64,000 nucleotides of DNA from Bugula neritina (GCA_964035545.1 OZ037767.1:7270707-7334706); one strand, 5' to 3'; counted from the first letter of the stretch, positions 1 to 10,269 are shown. A program made the numbers and translations. Notes: generated by a model from the letters alone, not told the origin.

Positions 1-2078
1 CTCGAGTAAAATTCTTCTTTAGGCGGTAAACATTTTTCATCCAATACGTTTATATTGTTAAAATAATTGTACGGAAATACTCCTTTTCTTAATACTTAGT
101 CTAATTGTCTCCCCTTAAAATGTTCGCTCAAGTGTTTAAAGTCGTCGCGTTTTAAATTCGCTACTAAACTCGCTAAACTAGAACTCATAAATTTATACGA
201 GTCTAAAAAGCGAATTTCACGCGTAACTTTAACTTTTTTACCTTTATTATTGGTAAATTCGTCTACTAATAATTTTTTACTAAAAGATATATATTTTTCT
301 TCGGTATTAGGTATACACGAAGGTTCACCGCCTAAGTTTTTAATAAACAAGTGAGCGTCGTAACCCGATAAATTATGAATAAATATTGGATAAAATTTTG
401 GAATTTTATAATTTAAGTTGCAATGTTCGTGCGCAGCTCCTCTATAATTTTTGGTTAAGTGACAATGATCTCTTACTCTGTCATTACCCAATTTTTCTTC
501 GCATATATGACAAATTTCAGCCAACTCGAAAGACTCTTGTTCGCTAGCCGAAATTTCCATTGGTTTAGGAAATTTATGTTTTTTATACAAGTTTTTAATG
601 TCGAGTTCTAATAATCTCATAAATAGTTCACCAATATCTTCGTCTTCGTATTGCTTAGTATAACTTCTGTACTCGCACTCGCCGGTAACGCTCACGATAT
701 AATATCCAAAACCCGACGGTTCGTGTTGCTGATATTGGTTAGTATAGCTTTTCTGAGAATTAGGCTGACAACTTTGTATAGGCTTAGTAAAACATTCAAA
801 GTCCGCGTATACCGTGAATGGTACTCTCATACTACGGCAATGGTGACTAGACTGAAATTTTATTTTATTTTTTATTTTCGGAAAGACCGTAGTTACACCG
901 TTATTTGATAAACACCAATCTTGATGCTTTTTTAAAGATTCGTTAGATCGAAACGAATTCATACAATTTACGCAAATATGTTTAGCGCTAACGCGTTTAT
1001 TTATTTGCGAACCGAGTAATTTATTTAAATTTTTAATATAAGCGTAATGACTCTTTTTGTCGTCGCTTATATAAAATAAATTTATAATTTTACCCTGATT
1101 TTTAGTTTTTTTCCATAAATTTATTGTTTTACCGTCCCACGTAAATACATTAATTCCGAAATTGGAATTAACCTCTTCAAAAGCGTCAATAGATTTTTTA
1201 GTAGCGGGAAATTCAACGCCTTCCCACAAAACTTTATTAACGTATTCTTTATAATTATTAATTCTTTCGGGATGGTTTTTAGGTGTATGAACACTCATTA
1301 AAATGGCCCACATAAAGCACTTATTATCCTCATTTTTAGGATTTATTACGGCTTTCTTTAATTTAATTTCTTTCGGAAGATCAATCCACGATGATCCGTT
1401 AAGAGGTTGATATTTATTAATATTAATTTCCATTTTTTTAATGGCTTTAAACATCCAGCTACTTCCTTTCGCGTTTAACGAAGCAAAATTTTCTTTTATA
1501 CGTTCAATTATTTCATCGTATATTTCATTAATATTCGTAGATTCTAATATAGTTTCAATATTTGATGTAAATGGCATAATTTCTACAATAGTTTCTCCGG
1601 TACGTACATTAATTTTTTCCATTTCGCAATACATAAATATTTTAACTTTTATAGTAGGTTTTAATAATTCTATTACATTTAATTTTACTAGTTTACTAAA
1701 TGAATTTATATCGTATTTGGGTAAACCCTTAATTTCATAAGTTTGAAACCAACCTTTAGCGGCTTGTTCTTTAAGCTTAGGCTGATTATATAAAGCCATA
1801 ATTTTATCCTTAATTGGATTTACAATTTTTGCAATTGGCTTTACAATACCCTTAACCCATTTTTTTATATTACGCGTAGTTTGTGTAAATATTTCTCGCA
1901 TAATTTTTTTTGCGGGTGTAGGTATTAACGGGGCTTGTCCTATATTCGGAACGGGTTCGTCCATAGGCGATAATAGCCGTATAAGTTCGGCTTTTCCTAA
2001 TCGAGAATATCGTTTTAATCCTCTTTCTTTAGCTAAAGCCTTTAAAGCTTTCACGGTAATTTTTGTATTGAACTCCAT
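1..2078 (-). pseudogene. polB: Protein-primed family B DNA polymerase (pPolB), N-terminal part, interrupted by an in-frame TAA at 96-98; continues off the window
   Basis: Rho-N-like start (TVKALKALAKERGLKRYSRLGKAELI), OTU-like DNKCF...HY, C2H2 finger, exonuclease motifs YADFE, HNLSGYD and RFLDSYKF, and an EndoVII-like CHIC...DHCH...HEHCN. After the stop the same frame reads VLRKGVFPYNY...LPPKEEFYS, a conserved pPolB motif. Confidence 0.92.
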
Positions 2079-2135
2079 TTATATAGTAAAAAAATCTTTA
2101 AACTATAAAATCAATTTTTTAATAAAAAATTGGTT

Positions 2136-2372
2136 TTATACGTCTTCGAGAATTTTATTTATTTGCGCTTTAAGTTTAGTTACTTTACGCCGCGATGTTA
2201 AATTTTTATTAAAATGTTTAAATAATTTATTTCGATCTTCATTCGACACGGAATTAATATTTAAGGTAGAATAATCGGTTAATCGCATAAATGTATGTTC
2301 GGGAAGAGGTATATATTTTTTTTGTTTAGCTTGAGCGATTAGTTTATCAAGTAATTCAATAGTAAACTCCAT
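2136..2372 (-). CDS. Small basic hypothetical protein of the Polinton (likely start MEFTIE at 2372)
   Basis: ORF in the viral cluster; ATG at 2372 is preceded by TTTATAAT, a variant of the element's start motif. Confidence 0.55.
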   Translation of the reverse strand: MEFTIELLDKLIAQAKQKKYIPLPEHTFMRLTDYSTLNINSVSNEDRNKLFKHFNKNLTSRRKVTKLKAQINKILEDV

Positions 2373-2414
2373 ATTATAAAATAATAAAATAATAAAAATC
2401 ATTTTTTTATATAA

Positions 2415-2894
2415 ATGGACTTTCGACGAGAAAAATTAGAACTCTTAAACGATGAAATTATTAAATTAGAAAACGAATACGAACAAAAACTTAATCGTTT
2501 TAATTGGTTATCAAAATCGTTAAAAATAATTTCAGGATTATGCGGTACAACGAATTTAATATGCGGTGTCATTATTACGGCGTTATTAAACGCTAACGTT
2601 ACTAAACAAACGTTATTACCATTATCTATAATAGTAAGTATAATGAGTGTAATTACTACTTCTATTTCTTCTCAAGACGCTAAATTAATTAAATCTACGT
2701 TAATGTATTTAGACGTATATACGTTTATAAAAGATTCAAAATTAGAAATTAATTCCATGTTATCGAAATTTTTAAGCGACTCTCATATAGACGAAGGAGA
2801 GTACGACGCTATAACCGAAAAATATAAAAATATTAATAGCGTAATATTGGATAAAAAAAGCGATATAATAATCGCTCGCAACAACGTTTGTTAA
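2415..2894 (+). CDS. Polinton hypothetical membrane protein (coiled coil plus two hydrophobic helices)
   Basis: 159 aa; two TM-like segments (IISGLCGTTNLICGVIITALL; LLPLSIIVSIMSVITTSI); TATATAAATG start. Confidence 0.75.
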   Translation: MDFRREKLELLNDEIIKLENEYEQKLNRFNWLSKSLKIISGLCGTTNLICGVIITALLNANVTKQTLLPLSIIVSIMSVITTSISSQDAKLIKSTLMYLDVYTFIKDSKLEINSMLSKFLSDSHIDEGEYDAITEKYKNINSVILDKKSDIIIARNNVC

Positions 2895-8716: not shown

Positions 8717-8731
8717 TTATTATAATAAATG
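8714..8731. promoter_or_regulatory. Perfect 18-bp palindrome CATTTATTATAATAAATG containing both divergent start codons; putative bidirectional TAAATG initiator
   Basis: CAT 8714-8716 is the integrase ATG and ATG 8729-8731 is the ATPase start; each strand reads TATAATAAATG. Confidence 0.75.
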
Positions 8732-9487
8732 GAAATAGAAAATCTTTCGTGGAAAAACGAAATTAATCGTAATAATAATCCTTTACTTCCTAAAAGCATA
8801 AGAGGTCTTATCGTTGGAAAGTCTGGATGCGGTAAAACTACATTACTTTGTAACTTGCTATTACAACCTAATTGGCTCGATTACGATAAACTTATGATTT
8901 ACGGTAAAAGTCTTTCTCAACCCGAATATATAAATATGAGGAAGGCTTTCGAACGTAAATTAACTAAAGAAGAAATTTTAAATTTTTTTAAAAATAGTGA
9001 CGCGATAATAAATTCGGGTATAAACGTAACTCGTATTTTAAAAAATAGTAGGGGTAACGGTAATATAAACGCCGAATTTATCGAATCTAGTGACGACGTT
9101 TATGATCCTAGCGAATTAGACGTTAATAATAAAAATTTAATAATATTCGATGATTTAATGTTGGAAAAACAAAAAACTTGCGAAAGTTATTACGTAAGAG
9201 GACGACACAATAACGTCGATTGTTTTTATTTGTCGCAAAATTATTTTAAGCTGCCTAGAAATACTATTCGAGAAAACGCTAATTTTATTTGTTTATTTCC
9301 TCAAGACGGAAAAAATTTAAATCATATATATCAAGATCACGTAACCGGAGATTTAACGTTAAACGAATTTAAAAACTTTTGTTATAAAGGATGGCAAAAA
9401 CCTCACGGCTTTATTACTTTAGATCTTTCTTCCTCAAAAAATAATGGGAGGTATAGACACGGGTTAGACGAATTTTATATACCGTAA
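8729..9487 (+). CDS. DNA packaging ATPase (A32/FtsK-HerA family)
   Basis: Walker A GKSGCGKT, Walker B LIIFDD, RGRHNN arginine motif, SQNYFKLP..IRENAN. Confidence 0.93.
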   Translation: MEIENLSWKNEINRNNNPLLPKSIRGLIVGKSGCGKTTLLCNLLLQPNWLDYDKLMIYGKSLSQPEYINMRKAFERKLTKEEILNFFKNSDAIINSGINVTRILKNSRGNGNINAEFIESSDDVYDPSELDVNNKNLIIFDDLMLEKQKTCESYYVRGRHNNVDCFYLSQNYFKLPRNTIRENANFICLFPQDGKNLNHIYQDHVTGDLTLNEFKNFCYKGWQKPHGFITLDLSSSKNNGRYRHGLDEFYIP

Positions 9488-9490
9488 TAA

Positions 9491-10269
9491 ATGAGTGTTT
9501 ATAAATTCGGAGGAAGCGGTAAAATTTCTTCAATAAATACAAAAAAATTTGTTTTAATAAACGGTAGTAGTACTCTTACGGGTACGTTAGATATGGGTGA
9601 AAATAAAATATCTAGAGTTATTGATCCGGCTGACGATCAAGACGTAGCCACAAAAAATACGTTGACGATACGAGTATGCCTAAAATATTACATCCTATTA
9701 ATCAATTAACTATATCAACCGACGATGGACGCGTTATAGATAGCGATTTAAAAGTTGATGATGTCGTTACAAAAATTAATGTATCTAATTACGCCGTACC
9801 TCTTATACGAGACCCGAGTGAAAAATTAACCGTATCAACTAATACGGGTAATATTGTAGATAGTAACTTAAGCGTTAGCGATGTCGTTACGACTAGTAAT
9901 ATAAATAATTTCGCTATAAATAAAATACAACCCGCGAATGAAAAATTAACCGTTTCAACTACTTCGGGTAATGTTGCGGATAGTAGTTTAAGCGTTAGCG
10001 ATGTTATTACAACTAGTAATATAAATAATTTCGCTATGAATAAAATACAACCAATAATTGGAGGTAAATTATTAATGCTTTCGAGTGATGGTAATATTGT
10101 AGAAACGGGTATAAATATTTCAGATCTTATTACAATAAATAATATAAATAATTATGCTATTCCTAAATTACAAGGAGCAGTTGGTAATAAATTAGTATTA
10201 TCAACAAATGATGGAGATATAACCGAATCTACTGAATCTCTACCAGTATTTTCGAGTTATAACGTTTAA
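9491..10269 (+). CDS. Fibre/spike-like repeat protein split by a -1 frameshift at 9652-9658
   Basis: LTGTLDMGENKI..V.DP..DQDVATK-[YVDD in the -1 frame] is a fibre/adhesin motif; the -1 frame runs into ORF 9676-10269, which has ~40-aa repeats (120-bp DNA repeat at ~9820 and ~9940). Confidence 0.7.

Follow-up and report, generated by a model that had tools for sequence, protein, structure and literature searches.

Start words of late type and an early motif suggest nucleocytovirus-type promoters in a Maverick/Polinton of Bugula neritina

Results

We analyzed a stretch of 64,000 nucleotides from the bryozoan Bugula neritina (GCA_964035545.1 OZ037767.1:7270707-7334706; called the window here, with positions counted from its first letter), of which positions 1-10572 are the right-hand part of an integrated animal Maverick/Polinton of the adintovirus type. 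The left portion of the element falls before the window start, and its right end closes with the terminal ACTACTACT. The genes of this element begin, with few exceptions, at a common AT-rich start word ending in TAAATG, and a candidate early promoter motif of nucleocytoplasmic large DNA viruses (NCLDVs) precedes its DNA polymerase gene. The element carries a retroviral-type integrase (PF00665, 35.4 bits versus a cut-off of 32.6) as well as a double-jelly-roll capsid protein (PF21738) and an A32-type packaging ATPase (PF04665), which are among the features by which Mavericks/Polintons are recognized. In its visible part (the left part lies outside the window) there is no adenain-like protease and, by Pfam scan, no RNA polymerase; the relatives have a protease candidate with a weak Peptidase_C5 match (E 0.043).

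The polymerase gene, pPolB, occupies 96..2078 on the minus strand (start TATATAA-ATG, the hyphen marking the boundary with the start codon). By BLAST it is a homologue of proteins of 1249-1294 amino acids (aa) in the relatives L009 and L081, and the window covers its N-terminal 660 aa. Pfam did not name a polymerase domain in the window fragment or in the relatives' proteins; we take the L009 and L081 homologues to be family B polymerases from their sequence motifs. The candidate early motif, AAATTGA, lies at 2111..2117 (minus), with its TGA at -35 from the pPolB ATG. Next comes an open reading frame (ORF) of 78 aa at 2136..2372 (minus), whose TATAAT-ATG (TATAATATG) is the single likely start without TAAATG. 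It also has AAAWTGA at -33, and an ATG within that motif, in frame, is a possible alternative start (2402). Divergent from it, a 159-aa ORF with two transmembrane-like segments, which has homologues in the relatives, runs from 2415 to 2894 on the plus strand (start TATATAA-ATG).

A 132-aa ORF of unassigned function at 3046..3444 (minus; start TATATAA-ATG), for which Pfam and an atlas search gave no confident family, lies between direct repeats of 27 bp. One of these, at 3008..3034 (minus), is an exact copy of the start block at 3443-3469 and is an orphan: it ends in TAAAT with no G next and no ORF after it. This orphan block heads a GC-richer stretch of 75 nt that ends ahead of a T run, and it is possibly a small-RNA promoter or the scar of a cassette insertion; the downstream fold is no better than shuffles (z -1.05), Rfam gave no match, and the relatives have no homologue.

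The virion genes follow. A pX/mu-like core protein at 3464..4033 (minus; start TATATAA-ATG) is assigned through its L081 homologue, which has a weak Adeno_PX match (E 0.007) under the curated cut-off. The putative minor capsid protein (penton) at 4046..4804 (minus; start TATATAA-ATG, the TAA of which is the stop codon of the next gene) is kept in the relatives and is named by synteny alone, Pfam having given no name. That next gene, at 4805..6079 (minus), encodes the double-jelly-roll major capsid protein (MCP; PF21738, E 1.7e-56) and starts with CTATAATAA directly before the ATG. The MCP has 3102 homologues, and the named ones are animal-genome proteins from scallop and bryozoan with 55-58% identity; we accordingly do not place the element among the virophages proper (Lavidaviridae). 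A 103-aa virion accessory ORF (6101..6412, minus) and a conserved 268-aa ORF (6416..7222, minus) both start with TATAATAA before the ATG, and in the former the upstream stop lies inside the word. Tandem 31-bp repeats rich in GTGTCCAC occupy 7241-7353, between the 268-aa gene and the integrase gene. In several relatives, short tandem repeats of unrelated sequence lie immediately upstream of the homologue of the 268-aa gene.

The integrase, at 7352..8716 (minus), joins a PLA2-like domain (PF08398), an rve domain (PF00665) and a chromodomain (PF00385) in a single frame. In all nine relatives that have both the PLA2-like domain and rve (L003, L005, L009, L012, L016, L021, L024, L034 and L081), the two are in different frames with the same offset. 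In several of them the frame changes at an A-rich run, and the offset looks like conserved programmed recoding. A perfect 18-bp palindrome, CATTTATTATAATAAATG, at 8714..8731 (no strand assigned) holds the start codons of the integrase and of the divergent A32-type packaging ATPase (8729..9487, plus; PF04665, E 2.2e-8), which are 12 bp apart. The last gene, at 9491..10269 (plus), is fibre-like and apparently interrupted, being made up of ORFs 9491-9709 and 9676-10269. Its TAATAA-ATG contains the ATPase stop, its N terminus is homologous to ORFs of 319-346 aa in L081 and L009, and about four 120-bp in-frame repeats lie at 9734-10173.

At the right end of the element, a hairpin of about 105 bp (10471..10575, no strand assigned) runs from AGTAGTAGTAGG to CCTACTACTACT, with a folding energy of -43.1 kcal/mol and a z score of -11.7 (0 of 200 shuffles equally stable). 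Its arms are inverted copies of a Polinton-type end, and it could be a terminus that primes itself or else a small non-autonomous insertion; it was sought in the relatives and was not found there. The host DNA beyond contains TMEM63/OSCA-like exon pieces, a C2H2 zinc-finger ORF and an aldehyde dehydrogenase exon. The observed/expected ratio of CpG is 2.10 in the element versus 0.39-0.49 in the flanking host DNA, and the element also exceeds 15 relatives (0.61-1.41) and the giant-virus loci (0.65-1.14); the ratio for TpG is 0.55-0.58. The CpG excess suggests recent insertion or an unusual mutational history.

The start word itself takes three forms: TATATAAATG at 2078 (minus), 2415 (plus), 3444, 4033 and 4804 (minus); TATAATAAATG at 6079, 6412, 7222 and 8716 (minus) and 8729 (plus); and TAATAAATG at 9491 (plus), with the variant TATAATATG at 2372 (minus). 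Each of these sites had been located correctly in a first-pass annotation of the sequence, which counted ten genes beginning at TAAATG; the motif is indeed at the starts, and the number is 11. All five copies of TATATAAATG and all five of TATAATAAATG in the element sit on gene starts, and the 53.4 kb of host DNA contain neither; the shorter ATAAATG is at gene starts in 11 of its 13 occurrences in the element. Either TAATAA or TATATAA directly before the ATG is found at 11 of 13 listed starts versus 0 of 204 other ATGs (Fisher p 8e-17), and TAA-ATG at 11 of 13 versus 11 of 204. Because ORFs are biased toward opening at the first ATG past a stop, short spurious ORFs served as a control (n = 126 in the element, n = 1563 in the host): TAA-ATG heads 11 and 59 of these, respectively, and the full motif heads none in either set. 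The 13th listed start (9676) is, from comparison with the relatives, probably an internal Met of the interrupted gene that begins at 9491, so that 11 of 12 likely starts carry the motif. At these same 11 of 12, a TAAAT(G/A) initiator overlaps the start, which is a feature of poxvirus late promoters. Such promoters also have a T-rich core of about 20 bp located 5-7 bp upstream of TAAAT. Here the upstream DNA is rich in A and T, A being most frequent near -21..-19 and positions -16..-11 being T-rich, and it has no fixed word. The intergenic gaps are 57, 42, 151, 19, 12, 0, 21, 3, 129, 12 and 3 bp, and the statement that many measure 0-21 bp holds for 7 of these 11.

Three ordinary accounts that the annotation had set against its own proposal do not explain the word. 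First, a Kozak preference for AAAATG is not seen: AAA-ATG occurs at 0 of 13 listed starts, and position -3 is T in 11 of 13, which is anti-Kozak, the usual eukaryotic preference there being a purine. Second, coupling of stop and start applies to few genes: the word takes in the upstream stop at three of the 11 sites, and of the three motif starts that are divergent, two have just 12 bp between them. Third, separate TATA boxes are scarce: TATAWAW at -38..-22 precedes a single one of the 12 window starts, and this sole match lies within the last codons of the upstream gene. If the word were instead a poly(A) signal, this would account for at most the four AATAAA sites between tandem genes, and the divergent pair would be left out.

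For comparison, homologous starts were collected from 81 related loci, keeping ORFs that align from near the N terminus of the reference protein and removing duplicates, which left 140 starts. A T followed by two to six A residues directly precedes the ATG at 107 of these 140, and in most relatives the form is T-A(3-6)-ATG in place of TAA-ATG. The style is element-wide: 25 elements contribute four or more starts each, and TAA-ATG makes up 60% or more of these in 8 elements, is absent from 12, and lies between in 5. In a tree of the MCP (34 of the 81 loci plus the window, with ORFs of 230 aa or longer and two or more starts), the window forms a long branch, and independent origins of TAA-ATG cannot be read from it. 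In the complete relative L081, which has terminal inverted repeats (TIRs) of 1,086 bp, the ORFs scanned with Pfam gave no RNA polymerase, TATA-binding protein (TBP) or VLTF. A 211-aa terminal ORF of L081 (1583-2218) lacks the AT-rich start block and is a candidate host-transcribed regulator; an atlas search gave it no usable family. Small putative DNA-binding ORFs with weak matches to Rho_N and NUMOD1 are kept in the relatives.

Two further genes were seen among the relatives. A DUF2738 gene (PF10927, E 2e-21), presumably of the NCLDV single-strand DNA-binding protein family, lies at L005:6926-7576 and in the near-identical L003. Its L005 product is 30% identical to a copy in the iridovirus-like locus L194, so that gene exchange with a large DNA virus is possible. 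Single-protein scans of IMG/VR gave no match for this protein or for the window MCP. A matrixin-type metalloprotease ORF (PF00413) stands beside degenerate relatives at L039:1866-2663 and at four other loci. Contigs from four runs presumed to be RNA cover the element patchily and at low depth; none of the loose contig ends listed is a poly(A) head at a start, and assembled contigs are blind to RNA 5' ends.

In IMG/VR, 22 stretches contain the 18-bp palindrome; judged from their genes, roughly half are giant-virus-like and the others phage-like. One of these stretches led to uncultured iridovirus-like (Pimascovirales-like) viruses, the loci of which were then chosen by protein homology; L104/L082 was chosen via the motif itself and is excluded from the pooled counts. 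The placement as iridovirus-like rests on the best PDB matches of the capsid proteins, 6ojn/8hif (E 1e-105 to 1e-115), which we take to be iridovirus capsids, and 7yjl, presumably a marseillevirus capsid. TAA-ATG heads 10 of 18 genes in L105, 49 of 132 in L187-198 and 48 of 149 in a second iridovirus-like set, and 54 of 84 in the richest subclade, which was picked out afterwards. Elsewhere it heads 8% of 618 genes in loci labelled Mimiviridae-like from their capsid sequence, 0 of 26 in L199, which we take to be marseillevirus-like, and 4% of 44 in phage-like loci. (The internal-Met control cannot hold TAA by construction and was not used for TAA-ATG.) In counts over whole records, TATAATAAATG occurs 18 times versus 1 in the control for G003 and 7 versus 0 for G001, and 9 versus 9 in the Mimiviridae-like G002; for TATATAAATG the counts are 13 versus 2 (G004), 6 versus 2 (G003), 4 versus 1 (G001) and 17 versus 22 (G002).

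The likeness extends to individual genes. The capsid genes of L197, L203, L204, L205 and L206 start with CTATAATAA before the ATG, identical to the start of the window MCP, and in L105 two divergent starts 13 bp apart lie inside a near-identical palindrome, its 13-bp equivalent. More generally, the iridovirus-like viruses L104, L105, L197 and L203-L209 have in common with the element ATAA-ATG and TAATAA-ATG starts, CTATAATAA at the capsid gene, very short divergent gaps and an early AAAWTGA at about -39..-33. They differ in having large genomes, and G003 and G004, in the records searched, encode Rpb2 and VLTF3 of their own, with weak TBP-like matches. Mimiviridae-like capsid genes have TATAAA-ATG at 12 of 32 starts, so that late starts of NCLDVs in general probably take the broader T-A(n)-ATG form.

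An NCLDV early motif, AAAnTGA, has been described 20-40 nt upstream of start codons (PMC6401483). In the iridovirus-like set, TAA-ATG is found in 2 of 32 genes with AAAWTGA at -45..-28 versus 100 of 262 others (p 1e-4), and the avoidance recurs in each subset, with 1 of 17 and 1 of 18 early-motif genes in slightly wider windows. Such avoidance is expected of a late initiator and not of a translation context. Among the Polintons, AAAWTGA precedes pPolB at -38, -36, -36 and -35 in four of nine family members, the window included, versus 3 of 185 other genes (p 7e-5; 0 of 20,000 shuffles); one internal-Met row was dropped from this count, and a separate tally was made for the small Rho_N genes, of which 3 of 23 have the motif. 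The spacing agrees with that in the iridovirus-like set, and by the ORF coordinates the TGA is not the upstream stop in any of the four cases.

Discussion

The first-pass annotation had proposed that a poxvirus-late-type word lets a co-infecting nucleocytovirus transcribe this element. Its identification of the TAAAT(G) word stands, and the proposal gains an early motif before pPolB; the poxvirus specificity falls away, given the exact match in uncultured iridovirus-like viruses. On balance, we favor the reading that the early and late promoters of the element are read by the RNA polymerase of a helper nucleocytovirus, because of the start word, the little room or TATA for host promoters, the starts shared with giant viruses, and the early motif. 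The predicted helper would more likely be iridovirus-related than a poxvirus. The promoter words are common to the element and to metagenomic iridovirus-like viruses, which may infect other hosts.

The mechanism that we envisage would work gene by gene. Each gene would have its own leaderless late-type initiator, served by the polymerase of the co-infecting virus, and transcription would begin within the A run of TAAAT, giving mRNAs with almost no templated leader. As happens in vaccinia and in yeast linear plasmids, the polymerase may slip on the A run and so add a poly(A) leader, which would mask the poor T at -3. pPolB would fire early through AAAWTGA and then again late, and late firing is expected of the capsid, packaging and integrase genes. 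Like mavirus with CroV, the integrated copy would be largely inactive in cells that a matching helper has yet to infect. An antiviral effect of the element is possible.

Several observations weigh against a helper polymerase, or against an iridovirus-related one. Within the window, the first ATG of a host ORF near 23 kb likewise follows a TAA directly; this TAA-ATG lies in a low-complexity AT run and may not be a true start. Among the relatives, the strict TAA-ATG is present at just 42 of 140 starts, and on the capsid tree the TAA style is limited to the window and one clade of 12 rows. Among the giant viruses the match is patchy, with several iridovirus-like loci at 0-15% (L191 2/20, L192 3/20, L198 1/10, and 0-3 each in L210-L219), the viral scans gave no recognizable animal iridovirus or poxvirus record, and the hosts of the matching viruses may be protists. 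Short AT-rich words, moreover, readily converge. As for the early motif, its strict form is absent from five of nine pPolB starts, the sample is small, and the position window was set after the data were viewed. Finally, according to Starrett et al. 2021 (PMC8502044), transcripts of adintoviruses are abundant in tissues of cavefish, and genomes of adintoviruses co-purify with particles from baculovirus-infected insect cells; the passages concerned mention no nucleocytovirus.

The main alternative is that the start blocks are compact core promoters, one per gene, for host RNA polymerase II in the nucleus, perhaps with an activator or a TBP mimic supplied by the element. TBP would bind an A-rich box at -34..-20, transcription would start at the TATA or TAAT word, and the likeness to giant viruses would reflect convergence or shared ancestry. 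The transcripts reported from fish tissues fit this account, as do the small Rho_N and NUMOD1 ORFs kept in the relatives, the GC-box and CCAAT-like words in the L081 TIR (1-1086), and an upstream WTAAAA box that could be a host TBP site and that is common in the relatives, at -38..-18 in 24 of 42 MCP and 19 of 23 o103 starts; the last two also count against a helper polymerase. Set against them are the near absence of canonical TATA boxes from the window starts, the 12 bp that two divergent genes have in common, and gaps that (at most 151 bp in the visible part) cannot fit a gene the size of TBP, for which the scanned L081 ORFs gave no match. Nor does host transcription predict the early motif before pPolB, or the T at -3 unless the leader is made by slippage. 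We therefore regard it as unlikely, while giving it real weight.

A second alternative keeps the NCLDV-type promoters and changes the helper, to a poxvirus or a virus of another order, or makes the dependence historical, with spread now vertical or by transposition. TAAATG is, after all, the textbook poxvirus late initiator, Polinton-like viruses (PLVs) have been found in entomopoxvirus occlusion bodies, two of them forming a divergent Maverick-Polinton branch (PMC11296320), and the TATAAA-ATG of Mimiviridae-like capsid genes resembles the T-A(3+) style of most relatives; a dependence that has lapsed would suit the apparently interrupted gene of this copy. But the extended CTATAATAA-ATG and the spacing of the early motif fit the iridovirus-like set, and the CpG ratio together with the mostly open frames suggests recent insertion, so that we give this alternative little credence. 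Least credible of all is that the word is a translation or 3'-end signal (polycistronic stop-start coupling, in-frame guard stops or an overlapping AATAAA), for although TAA stands immediately ahead of the ATG and in frame, with the upstream stop inside three sites and AATAAA within six, 8 of 11 sites are uncoupled, five lack AATAAA, the divergent integrase and ATPase starts of the window and relatives have AATAA-ATG in 5 of 14 and 5 of 12 cases (window rows counted), an exact copy of a start block exists without an ATG, and in giant viruses the word tracks promoter class.

The helper-polymerase reading has precedents outside animals. Mavirus and the EMALE provirophages of Cafeteria (PMC8547959) and the PLV Gezel-14T are likewise small integrating double-stranded DNA elements without an RNA polymerase that use their helpers' promoter words, with a motif type that varies by element lineage, and in Gezel-14T the helper's early motif also precedes the polymerase gene (10.1101/2022.07.28.501842). 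They differ in their protist hosts and capsid lineages and, for mavirus, in a late motif of TCTA, and their helper dependence is shown by experiment, whereas that of the Bugula element is inferred from sequence. Promoter sharing is also a topic of discussion for the virophages of Halocafeteria (10.64898/2026.07.28.741278) and has been invoked for the PLVs of Tetraselmis (10.1101/2025.10.09.676808). In form, the initiator resembles those of two known systems: in vaccinia it is TAAAT, where slippage makes poly(A) leaders (PMC5294985, PMC6211774), and vaccinia intermediate/late TAAAT(G) and the yeast linear-plasmid initiator TAAAN both place T-AAA-T over the start codon below an AT-rich upstream block. 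Those systems, however, encode their own RNA polymerase, and this Polinton family shows none in the visible part or in the L081 ORFs. Among animals, the PLVs that Barth et al. 2024 (PMC11296320) found with entomopoxviruses are Polinton-like elements that have a physical link to a large DNA virus of the cytoplasm; the main text of that paper contains no promoter analysis, and at least two of those elements have no known integrase.

The kind of element described here is itself known. Animal Mavericks/Polintons, or adintoviruses (PMC8502044, PMC8097293), have the same pPolB, rve integrase with chromodomain, PLA2-like domain, double-jelly-roll capsid, A32 ATPase and pX-like protein, and are integrated in animal genomes; their promoters go unanalyzed in the accessible text of those papers. 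Our literature search, which covered sources other than subscription journals and bioRxiv supplements, found no report of promoter motifs for animal Polintons, and the iridovirus-like start motif may already be present in the image-only logos of supplement 8 of PMC6401483. What appears to be new is the sequence evidence placing the motif in an NCLDV-type early/late code whose best match is iridovirus-like. Barreat and Katzourakis 2021 (PMC8097293) speculated, from host range alone, that giant viruses might activate vertebrate Mavericks, and named iridoviruses; that idea was put forward without sequence evidence, and the word and the early motif would open it to specific tests.

The start word bears on how animal Mavericks/Polintons come to be expressed and on the rarity of their particles. 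Tentatively, animal Mavericks/Polintons of this family could be endogenous virophages of iridovirus-like giant viruses, with a full borrowed early/late code and with each lineage tuned to its own helper, so that start words might match thousands of animal Polintons to the unseen large DNA viruses of their hosts. If this is true, parasitism or defense of the provirophage type would reach into animal germ lines, and the start words of Polintons would point to undiscovered large DNA viruses of invertebrates.

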